From: an uncultured delta proteobacterium
GTDB lineage: Bacteria > Desulfobacterota > Binatia > DP-6
DNA length: 64,000 bases
Reading direction: 5' to 3'
NCBI GenBank assembly: GCA_963815115.1
Contig: CAWFFN010000007.1
Location: 224,001-288,000 of the forward strand
Below are positions 9,162 through 42,674 of this stretch, one piece after another. Below the pieces are notes generated by a model. It was given only the letters and a program-made list of their open reading frames with translations. It did not search any database and was not told the DNA's origin. Position 1 is the first letter of the stretch, and the number at the start of each line of letters is the position of its first letter. The position numbers and the translations under genes are program-made.

Positions 9162-11321
9162 CTAGGGCACGACCGTGAACGTCGCATTCCCGGGCAGGCT
9201 GATCGAGCCCGGTCCGGGCAGATCGGCGATGCCGTCGACCGACAGGTTGCCGGTCATCGGGATGCAGAAGATGCTCACCAGGGTCGACGGATGCGGCAGG
9301 CCATCCGAGCCGTCACCCGCGGGCGAGCCCGTCTGGGTGATCTGCTCGGCGGTCGACTGTCCGAAGGCGCCAGCATTGATCTGGCCCGGACAGAAGATGC
9401 CGTCCGCGGCCGTCTGGGTAGCGGAGCCGGTCGTGAGCGGGGTCAGGTCGACCGGCAGCGTGGCGACGAAGCTCCCTGCACCAGGCATGCAGTCGAGGCT
9501 CGTCTGGTTGACGTTGGTGGTGGTGCAGGCCTGGCCCGCGTTCTCGCCGTAGCTGCAGGCGCCGCCGATGCACTGCGGGCAGGCCGTCGGCTGGCCGAGG
9601 CTCAGGAAGACGCGCGAGGCGAGGTTGATGCTGACGGACGACTCGCCCGTGAGGACGTCGAGCGTTCCGCTGCCGTCGGTCGCGAAGGTGTTGACCACGC
9701 AGGTCGAGGGGAAGCCGTTGACCGGCACCGGCGGTCCGAAGAAGCAGGTGGGGTCGAATGCACAGGCGCCCAGGAGCCCGGTGCAGTCGGCGTCGCTGGT
9801 GCACTCCACCGCCGGGTTGTTGACGCAGTGCTGGGTCGGCTGCGGGCCCGTGGTGCAGTCCGCCCGGCTGGTGCCGAGGCTGGCGATCAGGTTCACGTTG
9901 TCCGTCGTCTCGAAGATCGAGGTGGCATTCTCGGGAATGAGCGACGGGGGCTCGCTGGAAGCGCCGCCACCGATGTACAGGCAGCCGAGACCGAGCTGCA
10001 GGACCGGCATCGTGCCACCCGTGTCGGAGGACAGCTGGCCCGAGAAGGGTCCGAGCCCGACGTCCGGGTTGTTCTCATTGGGCTGCTGGCAGTCCGAGCC
10101 CACCACGGTGGTGAAGCTCAGGTGGGTGCCGAGCGGCGGAGGCTCCGTCGTGGTCGTGGTGGACGTCGTCGTCGTGGTCGTGCTCGTGGTCGGCACGGTC
10201 AGGGAGCGCGACAGCGCCTGGGCGAAGATGTCGATCGCCGTCTCGATGGGTGTGAGCTGGTCAGGGGTGCCGCACGTCTTGAGCGCGCCGTTGAAGGACG
10301 AGCCGGCCTTGGGGCCACAGCTCTCGGCCACTGCGAGTCCGGAGCTCGCGGCCTTGGACCAGCACTTCGCGACGGCCTGGGCCTTCTTGCCGACCGCGGC
10401 CATCTTCTTGCCGGCGCAGATGTCCGGGCCCGGCGCGCCGCTGCTGACGATCTGCAGGGTGCTGGCGATCATGTTGTCGACGGCGGCCTCGAACGTGGCC
10501 GGGTCGAGGTTGTCCCCGTGGCGGCCGCCGACCAGGCAATCGCCCTTGTCGCCCGCCTTCGCGAAGCCGCTGTCGAAGGCGTTGACGGCCTTCTGGATGC
10601 AGTTCGCGTCGACCGGGACGCCCTTCTGGAGCGCCTTGGAGTAGCAGGTGGCCTCGGCCTTGGCCTTCTTGCCAGCGGCGTCGATGGCGCCCTGCGCGCA
10701 CTTGCTCGGCGAGCCGGTCCCCACGATCGTGAAGCCCATGTTGTCCACGGTGAGGATCTCGACGGCGGCGAAGAGGCCGGACGTGCCGCACGAGTGTGTC
10801 GTGGTGAGGCTGACCGTCGTTGCGGGAGCGCTGAAGTCGAGGGAGATCGTGAGGCCACCGGCCGGGATGGTCGTGGTGCTGGTCCCGACCAGGGCCTGGC
10901 TCTCGTCGAAGCCCTGGAGCGTCACGGCCATCGTGCCCATGCAGTCGAGGCCGAGCGTGGTGGCGTCGAACTGGAGGTGGGTGATCGGCGGATAGAAGAA
11001 CATGGTCTCGGGCGACTGCGGGATGCCGCCGCTGCCCATCGACACGAAGCTCGCGAAGACCAAGACATTGGGCGGCGAGATACCCGGCTGGCTGCTCCCG
11101 ATGTCGAAGATCGTGCCGCCATTCTCGCCGAAGCCCATGAACTGGACGCCGAGATCGGCTTCCTCGTTGGTCGCGGGAACAGCCGTGGTGATGGACTCGG
11201 GCGAGCCGACGTTGTCGAAGTTCACCAGCACGTCGCTGGGGGAGACCGGCGTGAACTGGGCCGTCGCATTGCGGGCCAGCGCCGCCAGCACGAGGGCGCT
11301 CACGAGGAGGAATCGTTTCAT
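9162..11321 (-). CDS. Secreted Cys-rich multidomain protein with Thr-rich linker (paralog A)
   Basis: Signal peptide MKRFLLVSALVLAALARNATA; AAGGAG RBS; two 'GKKAxAxxxCxSKA' repeats; TTSTTTTT linker; tandem paralog upstream. Confidence 0.85.
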   Translation of the reverse strand: MKRFLLVSALVLAALARNATAQFTPVSPSDVLVNFDNVGSPESITTAVPATNEEADLGVQFMGFGENGGTIFDIGSSQPGISPPNVLVFASFVSMGSGGIPQSPETMFFYPPITHLQFDATTLGLDCMGTMAVTLQGFDESQALVGTSTTTIPAGGLTISLDFSAPATTVSLTTTHSCGTSGLFAAVEILTVDNMGFTIVGTGSPSKCAQGAIDAAGKKAKAEATCYSKALQKGVPVDANCIQKAVNAFDSGFAKAGDKGDCLVGGRHGDNLDPATFEAAVDNMIASTLQIVSSGAPGPDICAGKKMAAVGKKAQAVAKCWSKAASSGLAVAESCGPKAGSSFNGALKTCGTPDQLTPIETAIDIFAQALSRSLTVPTTSTTTTTTSTTTTTEPPPLGTHLSFTTVVGSDCQQPNENNPDVGLGPFSGQLSSDTGGTMPVLQLGLGCLYIGGGASSEPPSLIPENATSIFETTDNVNLIASLGTSRADCTTGPQPTQHCVNNPAVECTSDADCTGLLGACAFDPTCFFGPPVPVNGFPSTCVVNTFATDGSGTLDVLTGESSVSINLASRVFLSLGQPTACPQCIGGACSYGENAGQACTTTNVNQTSLDCMPGAGSFVATLPVDLTPLTTGSATQTAADGIFCPGQINAGAFGQSTAEQITQTGSPAGDGSDGLPHPSTLVSIFCIPMTGNLSVDGIADLPGPGSISLPGNATFTVVP

Positions 11322-11380
11322 GTCGCACTCCTTCCGCAGAATGTTCGGTTCGGTCGTTCGTCCGCCGTCGAGCGCGCGCA

Positions 11381-11569
11381 CCGTGGCCGGCAGCGGGGAT
11401 CTGAGGGTCAGGTCAACCGACTCTCATGCATTGCCCTCCCGAAGGGGCCGGTTGCTCGCGAGGTCGGCGAGCGCGTCGAGTGCTTCGATCATCCCCAGAA
11501 CCTCCCGGCGCCTCGCGGGCACTTGGTTCACGAGGCGGCGTGCTGGGCGACCCGGTCCGGAGTGACAGC
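11381..11569 (-). ncRNA. Candidate structured 5'-leader element, copy A (family unknown)
   Basis: Conserved blocks shared with 13948-14137 (68/72 and 35/39 nt identical by manual count) within otherwise poorly alignable intergenic DNA; stems and a cUUCGg loop. Confidence 0.55.
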
Positions 11570-11650
11570 TTCGGAGTCAGGTCGGTGTGGCCGGTTTGCA
11601 GCTTCTCCGTCTGAAACCTCGTTGCAACGTGTCGCTCATCGAAGAAGACA

Positions 11651-11687
11651 GCTCCCGGCGCCGGTCGGGAGGACCGGCGCCGGGAGC
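11651..11687. terminator. Hairpin downstream of paralog B (copy of the hairpin at 9093)
   Basis: GCTCCCGGCGCCGGTC-GGGAG-GACCGGCGCCGGGAGC, a 16-bp perfect stem. Confidence 0.7.
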
Positions 11688-11721
11688 GTTTACTTACGAG
11701 CTATTCTGCGAAACGCGTGCC

Positions 11722-13887
11722 CTAGGGCACGACGGTGAACGTCGCATTCCCGGGCAGGCTGATCGTGCCCGGACCGGGCAGATCGGCGATGCCGTCGACC
11801 GACAGGTTGCCGGTCATCGGGATGCAGAAGATGCTCACCAGGGTCGACGGATGCGGCAGGCCATCCGAGCCGTCACCCGCGGGCGAGCCCGTCTGGGAGA
11901 TGGCCTGGGCGGTGTCCTGTCCGAAGGCGCCGGCATTGATCTGGCCCGGGCAGAAGATGCCGTCCGCGGCCGTCTGGCTGGCGGTGCCGGTCGTGAGCGG
12001 GGTCAGGTTGACCGGCAGCGTGGCGACGAAGCTGCCCGACCCAGGCATGCAGTCGAGGGTCGTCAGGTTGACGTTGGTGGTGGTGCACGGCTGCCCGACC
12101 TGGTCGCCGTCGTTGCAGACGTTGCCGATGCACTGCGGGCAGGCCGACGGCCGGCCGAGGGTCAGGAAGACCCGCGAGGCGAGGTTGATGCTGACCGACG
12201 ACTCGCCCGTGAGGAGATCGAGGGTGCCGCTGCCGTCGGTTGCGAACGAGTTGACCACGCAGGTCGAGGGGAAGCCGTTGACCGGCACCGGCGGCCCGAA
12301 GAAGCAGGTCGGGTCGAAGGCACAGGCGCCCAGGAACCCGGCGCAGTCGCCGTCACTGGTGCACTCGACCGCCGGATTGTTGACGCAGTGCTGGGTCGGC
12401 TGCGGGCCCGTGGTGCAATCCGCGCGGCTCGTGCCGAGGCTGGCGACCAGGTTCACGCTGTCCGGCGACTCGAAGATCGAGGTGGCGTTCTCGGGAATGA
12501 GCGACGGCGGCTCGCTGGAGTTGCCTCCACCGATGTACAGGCAGCCGAGACCGAGCTGCAGGACCGGCATGGTGCCGCCCGTGTCGGAGGAGAGCTGGCC
12601 CGAGAACGGTCCGAGCCCCACTGTCGGGTCGAACTCATTCGGCTGCTTGCAATCCGAGCCCGGCGTGGTGGTGAAGCTCAGGTGGGTGCCGAGCGGCGGG
12701 GGCTGCGTCGTGGTCGTGGTGGACGTCGTCGTCGTGGTCGTGCTCGTCGTCGGCACGGTCAGGGAGCGCGACAGCGTCTGGGCGAAGAAGTCGATCGCCG
12801 TCTCGATGGGTGTGAGCTGGTCAGGGGTGCCGCACGTCTTGAGCGCGCCGTTGAAGGACGAGCCGGCCTTGGGGCCACAGCTCTCGGCCACTGCGAGTCC
12901 GGAGCTCGCCGCCTTGGACCAGCACTTCGCGACTGCCTGGGCCTTCTTGCCCACCGACGCCATCTTCTTGCCGGCGCAGATGTCCGGGCCCGGCGCGCCG
13001 TTGCTGACGATCTGCAGGGTGGTGGCGATCATGTTGTCGACCGCGCCCTCGAACGTGGCCGGGTCGAGGTTGTCCCCGTGCCGGCCGCCGATCAGGCAAT
13101 CGCCCTTGTCGCCGGCCTTCGCAAAGCCGCTGTCGAAGGCGTTGACGGCCTTCTGGATGCAGTTCTGATCGACCTCGACGCCCTTCTGGAGGGCCTTGGA
13201 GTAGCAGCTCGCCAGGGCCTTGGCCTTCTTGCCGGCGGCGTCGATCGCGCCCTGCGCGCACTTGCTCGCGGTGCCGGTGCCCACGATCGTGAAGCCCATG
13301 TTGTCGACGGTGAAGATCTCGACGCCGGCGAACAGGCCCGACAGGCCGCACGCGTGCCCGGAGGTGAGGACCACCGTCGTGGCGGGAGCGGAGAACTCGG
13401 TCGAGATGGTGAGGCCCTCGACCGGGACGTTCGTGGTGCTGCTCCCGACCGGCGCCTGGCTCGCGTCGAAGCCCTGGACGGTCACGTTTGCGGTCCCCTG
13501 ACAGTCGATGCCGAGCGTCGTGGCGTCGAACTGGAGCGAGGTGATCGGCGGGTAGAAGGTCAGGGTTTCGGGCGTCTGCGGGACGCCACCGTTCGCCATC
13601 GAGAAGAAGCTCGCGAAGACCAGCGTGTTGGGCTCCGAGATCCCCGGGGTGTTGGGGCTGCCGAGATCGAAGAGGAACCCGCCGTTCTGGCCGAAGCCGG
13701 CGAACTGGACACCGAGATCGGCGACTTCGTTGGTGAACGGGACAACCGTGGTGATGTCGCCCGTCACGGGGGGCAGGTTGTCGAAATTCACCAGCACGTC
13801 GCTCGGGGATACCGTGACGAACTGCGCCGTCGCGGTCCGAGCAAGTGCCCCGAATACCAGGGCGCTCACGAGCAGCATTCGCTTCAT
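11722..13887 (-). CDS. Secreted Cys-rich multidomain protein with Thr-rich linker (paralog B)
   Basis: Signal peptide MKRMLLVSALVFGALARTATA; AAGGAG RBS; colinear with paralog A. Confidence 0.85.
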   Translation of the reverse strand: MKRMLLVSALVFGALARTATAQFVTVSPSDVLVNFDNLPPVTGDITTVVPFTNEVADLGVQFAGFGQNGGFLFDLGSPNTPGISEPNTLVFASFFSMANGGVPQTPETLTFYPPITSLQFDATTLGIDCQGTANVTVQGFDASQAPVGSSTTNVPVEGLTISTEFSAPATTVVLTSGHACGLSGLFAGVEIFTVDNMGFTIVGTGTASKCAQGAIDAAGKKAKALASCYSKALQKGVEVDQNCIQKAVNAFDSGFAKAGDKGDCLIGGRHGDNLDPATFEGAVDNMIATTLQIVSNGAPGPDICAGKKMASVGKKAQAVAKCWSKAASSGLAVAESCGPKAGSSFNGALKTCGTPDQLTPIETAIDFFAQTLSRSLTVPTTSTTTTTTSTTTTTQPPPLGTHLSFTTTPGSDCKQPNEFDPTVGLGPFSGQLSSDTGGTMPVLQLGLGCLYIGGGNSSEPPSLIPENATSIFESPDSVNLVASLGTSRADCTTGPQPTQHCVNNPAVECTSDGDCAGFLGACAFDPTCFFGPPVPVNGFPSTCVVNSFATDGSGTLDLLTGESSVSINLASRVFLTLGRPSACPQCIGNVCNDGDQVGQPCTTTNVNLTTLDCMPGSGSFVATLPVNLTPLTTGTASQTAADGIFCPGQINAGAFGQDTAQAISQTGSPAGDGSDGLPHPSTLVSIFCIPMTGNLSVDGIADLPGPGTISLPGNATFTVVP

Positions 13888-13947
13888 GTCACTCTCCTTC
13901 CGGGTAGTCTGTGTACGGTCCATCTTCATCCGCTGTTGACTGCGAGA

Positions 13948-14137
13948 CCGCGGTCGGCAGCGGGTCTCACGCCTGGGTCAGCCGGCTCTCATGCTTCGCC
14001 CTCCCGAAGGGGCCTATTCCCCGGGCGGTCGGCGGGTGGGTGTATCGGGTTCAGGCTTGGGCCCCGAACCTCCCGGCGCTTCGCGGGCACTTGGTTCGCG
14101 AGGCGGCGTGCTGGGCGACCCGATCGGGAGTGACAGC
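13948..14137 (-). ncRNA. Candidate structured 5'-leader element, copy B
   Basis: See copy A. Confidence 0.55.
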
Positions 14138-14307
14138 CCCAGACCATGGTCGGAGTCGATTTTCGCGAGTTTTTTCGGCTACTTTCCGGGGTCAGTGCGC
14201 AAGCTCGGCGGGAGAGTGCTCCAAGCCCGCCTACCGGCGCGAGCGCCGATCGTCGCGAGGCGCCGTCCCGTACCTTCGGGCGCCTAGAGTCATTGCGACA
14301 CGCCGAT

Positions 14308-14364
14308 ACTGACATGTCAGTTTACCGAGTGCCTGCTCTAGACGAGGCGCCGGCATTTTGTCAA
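14308..14364 (-). promoter_or_regulatory. Putative sigma70 promoter for paralog B with a palindromic operator
   Basis: TTGACA on the - strand at 14359-14364; perfect palindrome ACTGACATGTCAGT at 14308-14321. Confidence 0.45.
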
Positions 14365-14526
14365 CGAACAATTTTGTAGAGAGTCAGAAAAAATCGTTCA
14401 TCTCGACGTGAATGGGCAGCATCGTCGCTGAGCGGATGACGACGCGCCGTGCCATCCCGACCTCGTGGGCGGCCGGCGGACCGTCGCTGTTGACACGGCC
14501 GGGCGCTCAGGGGGACGAAGGGCATC

Positions 14527-42521: not shown

Positions 42522-42593
42522 TGGTCCCAGGGGGAATCGAACCCCCGCTACCGACGTGAGAGGCCGGTGTCCTAGCCGCTAGACGATGGGACC
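42522..42593 (-). tRNA. tRNA-Glu(CTC)
   Basis: Cloverleaf with GGTCCCA/TGGGACC acceptor stem, anticodon loop CTCTCAC, and GTTCGA. Confidence 0.95.
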
Positions 42594-42601
42594 GGCGGGA
42601 G

Positions 42602-42674
42602 CTGAGGAGGGAGGACTCGAACCTCCAATCGCCTGATCCAGAGTCAGGTGGCTTACCAATTAGCCCACTCCTCA
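42602..42674 (-). tRNA. tRNA-Gln(CTG)
   Basis: TGAGGAG/CTCCTCA acceptor stem; CCTGA-CTCTGGA-TCAGG anticodon arm; GTTCGAG. Confidence 0.95.

Follow-up and report, generated by a model that had tools for sequence, protein, structure and literature searches.

A candidate regulatory RNA leader upstream of secreted-protein genes in a small uncultured clade of Binatia

Results

Two copies of a conserved leader precede two paralogous genes

The window analyzed here is a stretch of 64,000 nucleotides (nt) from an uncultured delta proteobacterium of the class Binatia (GenBank assembly GCA_963815115.1, contig CAWFFN010000007.1, positions 224,001 to 288,000). Its minus strand carries two paralogous genes (paralog 1, 9162-11321; paralog 2, 11722-13887), each encoding a protein of ~720 residues with a signal-peptide-like N terminus, and in front of each gene lies one copy of the element that is the subject of this work, a candidate regulatory RNA (copy A before paralog 1 and copy B before paralog 2). 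An earlier note, made from the sequence alone, had described these two leader copies, and both a minus-strand alignment and a BLAST search of the organism's own genome agree with it: read in the direction of the genes, the leaders align with each other, and leader 1 matches leader 2 along 216 nt with 78% identity (E 5e-30). A recount gave exactly the block identities the note had reported (68 of 72 positions in block 1 and 35 of 39 in block 2), and the spacers it had called divergent, 45 and 48 nt long, are indeed unalignable. The element also ends where the note had placed it, leaving 60 and 61 nt to the ATGs of the two genes (11321 and 13887), but its start had been set too late, as the conserved unit begins ~15 nt further 5'. 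The earlier coordinates begin at the loop of the first hairpin and so cut that hairpin in half, which is why it was missed.

The leader blocks are 94% and 90% identical between the two copies, versus 58 to 83% at neighboring synonymous sites. The coding sequences as a whole are 88.4% identical, with 82.5% identity at four-fold-type third positions and only 58% third-position identity in the first 60 codons, which adjoin the leader. The blocks are therefore better kept than nearby neutral sites, indicating that they are more than duplication noise. Across the paralog pair (9162-13887), third-position identity rises from the low value at the 5' end to 93 to 97% in the middle and at the 3' end, a mosaic that suggests gene conversion. 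No RNA data set turned up for positions 11000-14450; four sets of DNA contigs contained no variants in the leaders, and positions 13906-14311 were covered by identical contigs only.

A family of copies within one clade

The host genome (G000) comprises 6.9 Mb at 70% G+C and is 100% complete. BLAST and a DNA search of this whole genome yielded four further copies of the 5' block, and covariance models found nine copies in all, with nothing else up to E 0.1. Collecting homologs from related genomes showed that the element extends well beyond the duplication seen in the window, to a total of 27 copies (25 distinct) in four genomes and 12 soil-metagenome contigs. The four genomes are among 25 from one Binatia family, and they hold nine (G000), three (G001), two (G003), and one (G019) copies. 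Among 151 genomes sampled from the class and searched with stricter filters, three contained the element, all of one genus; none was found in 133 genomes from 18 other families of the class. An exact-pattern scan returned 74 metagenome and 52 genome stretches, of which 12 and 3, respectively, passed the covariance model; the three genome stretches equal copies of G001 and G003 in bits. The remaining stretches failed the model and were set aside as chance matches in unrelated taxa.

No described RNA family accounts for the element. Rfam 15, run over the whole window at the gathering score, returned only two tRNAs, which are adjacent genes at 42522-42674 on the minus strand, and nothing on the element. 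When positions 11200-14500 were searched at E≤10, there were three chance matches, none on the element, and six other loci searched at E≤1 gave one sub-threshold match to the serC leader, away from the element. These searches agree with the earlier note, which could not match the element to cobalamin, glycine, SAM, ZTP, or cyclic-dinucleotide riboswitches. A literature search found no papers on riboswitches in Binatia, and other RNA terms gave nothing relevant.

Two leader hairpins, one of which covaries clearly

Read on the minus strand, the conserved unit opens with hairpin 1 (hp1), whose hexaloop CUGUCA is invariant and closed by a G-C pair. The upper stem is mostly GAAG/CUUC, and the lower stem varies in both sequence and length, reaching up to 14 perfect pairs; in copy A the lower stem covaries, and the apical GAAG/CUCC stem has one A-C mismatch. 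We addressed the reality of this helix with an ungapped, structure-blind alignment (A9) of 23 sequences, 21 of them distinct, anchored on the loop alone. Eleven of 13 pairs had changed on both sides, 77.3% of cells were paired (66.0±1.7 in shuffles, 0/500), and the covariation score was 0.358 (0.171±0.023 in shuffles, 0/500), while slid registers all scored 0.157 or less. The model-fitted alignment (R3/A6) gave an agreeing result. Although related sequences can outscore shuffles without any structure, this concern is met for hp1 by the slid-register control and by the pattern of a conserved loop on a variable stem. The loop is kept while the letters of the stem change, a pattern that marks a folded strand rather than a duplex DNA site. 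We conclude that hp1 is strongly supported as a real RNA structure, and the covariation check gave its clearest result on a helix that the earlier note did not contain.

A poorly conserved linker of ~12 nt separates hp1 from hairpin 2 (hp2), which has ~11 pairs and a loop of ~11 nt ending in invariant GUGCC. The stem CGCCUCGYG/CGCGARGCG that the earlier note had drawn corresponds to hp2; its sequence conservation holds across the copies, but its covariation is thin. In hp2, 79.5% of cells are paired and double changes occur at 6 of 11 pairs, and two positions are C·C mismatches in 21 of 25 sequences. The stretch that follows hp2 differs between subtypes of the element.

The earlier note had also proposed that the hp2 loop could form alternative pseudoknots with an upstream GCAC and a downstream GGUU. 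These are not conserved, since just 7 of the 27 copies have the GCAC partner and 2 of the 27 have AACC in the loop. In many copies the sequence of the hp2 loop resembles that of the hp1 5' arm, and the CAC of the hp1 loop faces the GUG of the hp2 loop. A protein-coding reading of either strand was rejected: no frame is open in all copies, each being interrupted by stops in 5 or more of the 25 copies, and the distance separating the two anchors ranges from 45 to 49 nt.

A Shine-Dalgarno hairpin and a four-codon mini-ORF

In 17 copies a third hairpin (hp3) begins 99 to 136 nt after the hp1 loop. It pairs an invariant 5' arm, GGC[C/G]CCU, with a 3' arm formed by a GGAGG-type Shine-Dalgarno (SD) sequence, and an ATG follows 5 to 9 nt later. 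All 17 copies with this SD module are in sense with the downstream gene, the leader position expected of a riboswitch candidate. Alignment A8, made of 16 leaders, has invariant arm columns and the ATG at a fixed distance, and the SD hairpin was predicted in all 16, with single-sequence folds of -5 to -15 kcal/mol. The pairs cannot be counted under one structure, as the register differs between subtypes; a co-change in which the arm goes from GGCCCC to GGCGCC where its partner goes from G to C or U is suggestive of pairing. The earlier note had also reported a cUUCGg hairpin. A hairpin is kept at its place across copies, but the UUCG loop is confined to A and B, with other loops elsewhere. Together with the orientation of the genes, the SD/ATG module fixes the element on the minus (mRNA) strand, which the note had left undecided, and the count of G-U pairs versus A-C mismatches (29 versus 18) gives this mild support.

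In four leaders (E, F, L037, and L081) the hp3 SD drives the main open reading frame (ORF) directly, which marks the module as a real ribosome-binding site. In 11 of the 13 other leaders, the hp3 ATG instead starts a mini-ORF. Nine of these are exactly four codons long (MRVG, MRAG, MRSV, MGAA three times, MKAA, MRLG, and MGIV) and two carry one extra leading ATG (MMRSV). The two exceptions are L021, with a GTG-initiated ORF of five codons, and L022, which lacks a start codon. As a background rate, four-codon ORFs start at only 1.2% of ATGs in the genome. The start and stop stay in register while the inner nine letters change; the peptides share only M-[R/G/K]. The mini-ORF has one of the properties by which leader-peptide and upstream ORF (uORF) elements are recognized, being a short ORF with its own SD and a conserved position and frame, and it is followed by 95 to 190 nt, an ordinary SD, and the main start. 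In copy A a second ATG lies 4 nt upstream of the mini-ORF start (11427-11433, minus strand) and opens a seven-codon ORF in another frame (MHESRLT); it is absent in copy B.

Table 1. Coordinates of leader features and flanking signals in the window
Feature	Position	Strand	Details
Copy A hp1	11548..11584	-	Loop CUGUCA at 11563-11568; minimum free energy fold and covariation
Copy A hp2	11506..11540	-	Stem CGCCUCGYG/CGCGARGCG, 11-nt loop ending GUGCC
Copy A hp3	11433..11449	-	Alignment A8 and single-sequence fold
Copy A mini-ORF	11413..11427	-	MRVG, stop TGA, 6 nt after SD
Copy A main SD and start codon of paralog 1	11319..11335	-	SD GGAAGGAG at 11328-11335; start codon at 11319-11321
Terminator-like hairpin	11651..11687	-	16 base pairs (bp); between the paralog 2 stop (11722) and leader A
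Copy B hp1	14117..14151	-	Loop CUGUCA at 14131-14136
Copy B hp2	14074..14108	-	Fold and covariation count
Copy B hp3	13998..14014	-	Alignment A8 and single-sequence fold
Copy B mini-ORF	13978..13992	-	MRAG, stop TGA
Copy B main SD and start codon of paralog 2	13885..13901	-	SD at 13894-13901; start codon at 13885-13887
Perfect palindrome	14308..14321	.	14 nt, ACTGACATGTCAGT; 184 nt upstream of the copy B hp1 loop
-35-like hexamer of the copy B promoter	14359..14364	-	TTGACA; 43 nt upstream of the palindrome

Association with one secreted-protein family

A tblastn search identified 15 full-length paralogs of the downstream protein in the host genome, and eight of the nine copies of the element lie directly upstream, in sense, of eight of them. 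Two further paralogs follow the locus C gene in tandem with spacers of 77 to 79 nt, and five have other leaders. Tabulating downstream genes across all copies, as the earlier note had proposed, gave the same picture, with every copy that has a downstream family gene standing in sense before a member of this one secreted-protein family. The element's blocks are shared by paralogs with protein identities of only 51 to 60%. The full-length family occurs in G000, G003, and G019 and as fragments in G001, which are the same genomes that carry the element. At one G001 locus (L023, C7:813507 onward), the promoter, palindrome, hp1, and hp2 are fused to the last ~40 codons of a decayed family gene, and the terminator hairpin typical of the family comes next; an internal deletion seems to have reduced the gene to this remnant.

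The downstream protein has no match in Pfam, NCBIfam, or the ESM Atlas, and its homologs are all annotated as hypothetical, several of them from metagenome-assembled genomes of Candidatus Binatia. Its AlphaFold model (mean predicted local distance difference test score, pLDDT, 84) has four parts: an N-terminal beta-sandwich, a Cys-containing helical domain, a Thr-rich linker, and a Cys-rich beta domain. Neighbors in the PDB were obtained for the jelly-roll part only, and comprise the gingipain cleaved-adhesin domain, CBM4/6/22, and BtuJ/DUF4465, with template-modeling scores of ~0.5 on the target and E ~1e-4.

The ninth copy in the host genome (D) stands 105 nt after an alpha/beta-hydrolase fusion gene and faces the 3' end of a convergent paralog. 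Eight copies are of this type, namely L009:1501-1615 (G000 C5:465961-466075), L019, L064, L076, L039, L096, L066, and L095. The D-type copies have the longest perfect hp1 stems and are kept together with the 3' end of the alpha/beta-hydrolase fusion gene; they may represent a 3' untranslated region (UTR) element or a small RNA.

The terminator-like hairpin between the two genes in the window (Table 1) is the sole such site within 11300-14520. A near-identical GC-rich hairpin of 16 bp, recognized by BLAST matches to leader positions 36-69, follows many paralogs of the family, including those at G000 C8:362025, 364261, and 366513.

Upstream palindrome, promoter, and TetR-family gene

The palindrome listed in Table 1 occurs at 12 sites in the host genome, 10 of which have an exact TTGACA 32 to 43 nt upstream and at least nine of which precede members of the secreted family or partial relatives. 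In 13 copies of the element family, it precedes the hp1 loop by 31 to 225 nt. A strict sigma-70 scan requiring a TATAAT-type -10 found nothing. At locus C, a TetR-family gene (PF00440, E 3e-16) has its ATG inside the palindrome and ends where element C begins. Since the palindrome holds the tetR start codon, transcripts of locus C must begin at or before it. The palindrome is thus a probable candidate operator of the locus C TetR-family repressor, placed at or near the transcription start, and the corresponding regulon probably comprises about 12 promoters. If the palindrome marks the region of transcription start, then the element would lie inside the transcript. At this locus (L010:721-1503; G000 C8:358798-359580), the TetR-family gene would be nearly leaderless if transcribed from the palindrome.

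Discussion

We put at about even the chance that the element, as a structured 5' leader acting in cis and specific to a small uncultured Binatia lineage, gates translation of a single secreted-protein family. The proposal in the earlier note of an undescribed riboswitch-like or protein-binding leader is supported in part, by the lack of an Rfam family, the homologs, the covariation of hp1, and the link to the secreted family, but the pseudoknots it proposed are not supported, and the covariation of the stem it had drawn (hp2) is thin.

Transcription of the element would most likely proceed from a TTGACA-type promoter whose start region holds the palindromic operator, probably read by a TetR-family repressor. 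The leader is predicted to fold into hp1, with its CUGUCA loop, and hp2, with its GUGCC loop and two C·C mismatches, and the two hairpins together may form the surface that a factor acting in trans recognizes; this factor is more probably a protein than a metabolite. The regulated step, in one direction or the other, would be access of the ribosome to the hp3 SD, and translation of the mini-ORF could be coupled to the downstream gene via Rho-dependent polarity or refolding of the mRNA. We favor a leader read by a protein or by the ribosome over a metabolite aptamer because the element amounts to two plain hairpins with invariant loops, for which no junction or pseudoknot is supported, and because it is tied to a single gene family, has a narrow distribution, and includes a mini-ORF of fixed length. 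A leader bound by CsrA/RsmA was excluded because the gene was not found; there is no PF02599 match in the 100%-complete host genome, and the same search detected the family in control genomes.

Several observations weigh against a translational gate of this kind. All of the sequences come from one narrow clade, and the covariation events are consequently few and related. In hp2, the double changes amount to eight cells, mostly contributed by L024 and L023, and a +2 slide scores 0.125 versus 0.130 in the true register. Folding energies are no better than those of shuffles (z-scores for A and B of -0.07 and +0.97 in sense, and -1.26 and -0.37 in antisense). No alternative pairing, pseudoknot, junction, or enclosing helix was found to be conserved among the copies; a kissing interaction between the hp1 and hp2 loops was not supported by cognate versus non-cognate duplex energies, nor was a helix closing hp2 between the linker and the 3' flank (permutation tests, p=0.16 for each). 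The modeled accessibility of the SD differs between copies, from 0.01 to 0.74, and comparing it with and without the 5' arm of hp1 gave no consistent effect. Seven of the 15 paralogs do without the element, and the eight D-type copies lack both the SD module and a downstream family gene. Copy A has no recognizable promoter or palindrome, neither leader A nor leader B contains an intrinsic terminator, and the transcription start of the element is one that we infer.

Among the competing explanations, one is that hp1 and hp2, perhaps docked through their loops, form the aptamer of a metabolite-binding riboswitch whose ligand opens or closes the SD hairpin, which we regard as unlikely. This would account for the invariant loops and the C·C mismatches conserved inside hp2, for the sense position in the leader with an SD-sequestering hairpin at a fairly fixed distance, and for the lack of an Rfam match, and the CAC of the hp1 loop and the GUG of the hp2 loop are invariant and complementary, extending to a perfect 5-nt match in L020 and L022. 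However, the architecture comes down to a pair of independent hairpins for which neither a junction nor a pseudoknot nor a closing helix is supported, and the region from hp2 to the SD is not conserved between subtypes. The confinement to one gene family and to 4 of 25 genomes also speaks against a riboswitch, as does the lack of any association with metabolic genes that would point to a ligand, and the structural model of the downstream protein offers nothing beyond a jelly-roll binding domain.

It is rather improbable that the element serves mRNA processing or stability, with GC-rich hairpins protecting the 5' end or marking cleavage between cistrons and no signal being sensed. The hp1 stems of 12 to 14 perfect pairs in D-, E-, and L019-type copies would suit such a role, and two copies do lie between cistrons (C after tetR, and A after the paralog 2 terminator). 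A stabilizer, however, needs neither an invariant hexaloop, nor an invariant hp2 loop, nor a conserved SD/mini-ORF module at a set distance, and hp1 is imperfect in copies A, B, and C.

A more ambitious reading, which we consider a doubtful speculation, would make the element a new riboswitch-like sensor: two hairpins docked by their invariant loops would bind a signal of the extracellular state and gate a start-then-stop mini-ORF of four codons, thereby licensing a multi-copy secreted family, with D-type copies serving as decoys in trans. This sensor and the TetR operator would make up a two-layer DNA and RNA switch private to Binatia. The D-type copies likewise motivate the quite improbable idea that the element is, at least in part, a stand-alone small RNA or decoy that titrates the factor reading the leaders. 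These copies make up 8 of the 27 and are the best-scoring matches to the model, they are conserved with their upstream flank across G000, G001, and six metagenome contigs, and the gene downstream of them varies (a convergent paralog, an ArsC-like gene, or an NmrA-like gene). No promoter or terminator was identified for them, however, their position ~105 nt after the stop of the alpha/beta-hydrolase fusion gene means that they could be its 3' UTR, and a decoy leaves the 17 leaders with an SD module unexplained.

That the element acts as DNA, be it an operator, a roadblock, or a recombination site, is very improbable. The hp1 loop does contain TGTCA, a half-site of the 14-nt palindrome, the G-U and A-C counts favor the sense strand only mildly, and in A and B folding is slightly in favor of the antisense strand. 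But hp1 keeps its loop while its stem covaries, the opposite of the pattern expected for a protein site on duplex DNA, the separate perfect palindrome would already fill the role of operator at the promoters, and the element carries only one half-site and always has the same orientation relative to the genes. Least credible of all is that the element has no function and has merely been copied along as the paralogs underwent tandem duplication and gene conversion, for although the A and B coding sequences are mosaic (third-position identity climbs from 58% at their 5' ends to 97% at their 3' ends), the blocks persist in paralogs with only 51 to 60% protein identity and across four genomes while the spacers between them are unalignable, hp1 shows compensatory changes, and the mini-ORF keeps its start and stop in register while its inner codons change.

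Among known systems, ANTAR target RNAs consist of two tandem hairpins with hexaloops of the form AxxGxx, and a terminator is overlapped by the second hairpin. The element resembles them in having two tandem leader hairpins, the first with a hexaloop, that are plausibly read by a protein, but it was rejected as an ANTAR target since the hp1 loop CUGUCA has C1 and U4, the hp2 loop is ~11 nt, there is no overlap with a terminator, and Rfam gave no match.

The erm and cat leader peptides are regulatory uORFs that sense the state of the ribosome, and uORFs of the toiL, erm, and cat type are longer than the mini-ORF described here, at eight or more codons. Several of the mini-ORF peptides begin with M-R/K (MRLG, MRVG, and MKAA). 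In toiL-topAI of Escherichia coli, a uORF is reported to sense ribosome state and act through Rho (PMC12121999). Like these systems, the element has a short ORF within a long leader and lacks an intrinsic terminator ahead of the main gene. Unlike the element, the toiL, erm, and cat uORFs are not known to have a conserved upstream domain of two hairpins.

A closer parallel in layout is the odc1 motif (uORF-25-1) of alpha-proteobacteria from the Breaker laboratory, described as a cis-regulatory control of where translation begins (PMC8632094). In both, the ribosome-binding site makes up one side of a hairpin in a structured leader, a mini-ORF whose length does not vary lies upstream, and a single type of gene follows. 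The odc1 uORF has 11 conserved residues and lies 2 nt from the main start (PMC8632094), whereas the mini-ORF of the element has four codons and a poorly conserved peptide, lies 95 to 190 nt before the main start, and is preceded by two extra conserved hairpins; the two show no similarity in sequence or model, and Rfam gave no match. Like the orphan riboswitch candidates and protein-binding hairpin motifs known from comparative genomics (PMC8632094), the element is a conserved, covarying leader motif recovered by comparative analysis. It is absent from Rfam 15, and its distribution is narrower than that of most published motifs, the 27 copies coming from a single clade within an uncultured class.

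We conclude that the element is a well-delimited candidate regulatory RNA, of a kind already known, whose structure, ORF length, and position differ from those of odc1. The reach of this finding is limited by the narrow distribution of the element.

Binatia are abundant and still uncultured soil bacteria. A fixed mini-ORF of four codons behind a sequestered ribosome-binding site is unusual, and the E-type leaders, at ~180 nt, provide a compact test case for how very short upstream ORFs cooperate with folded leaders. For the biology of these organisms, the element marks the 15-member secreted family and the TetR-linked palindrome regulon as a co-regulated system worth characterizing.

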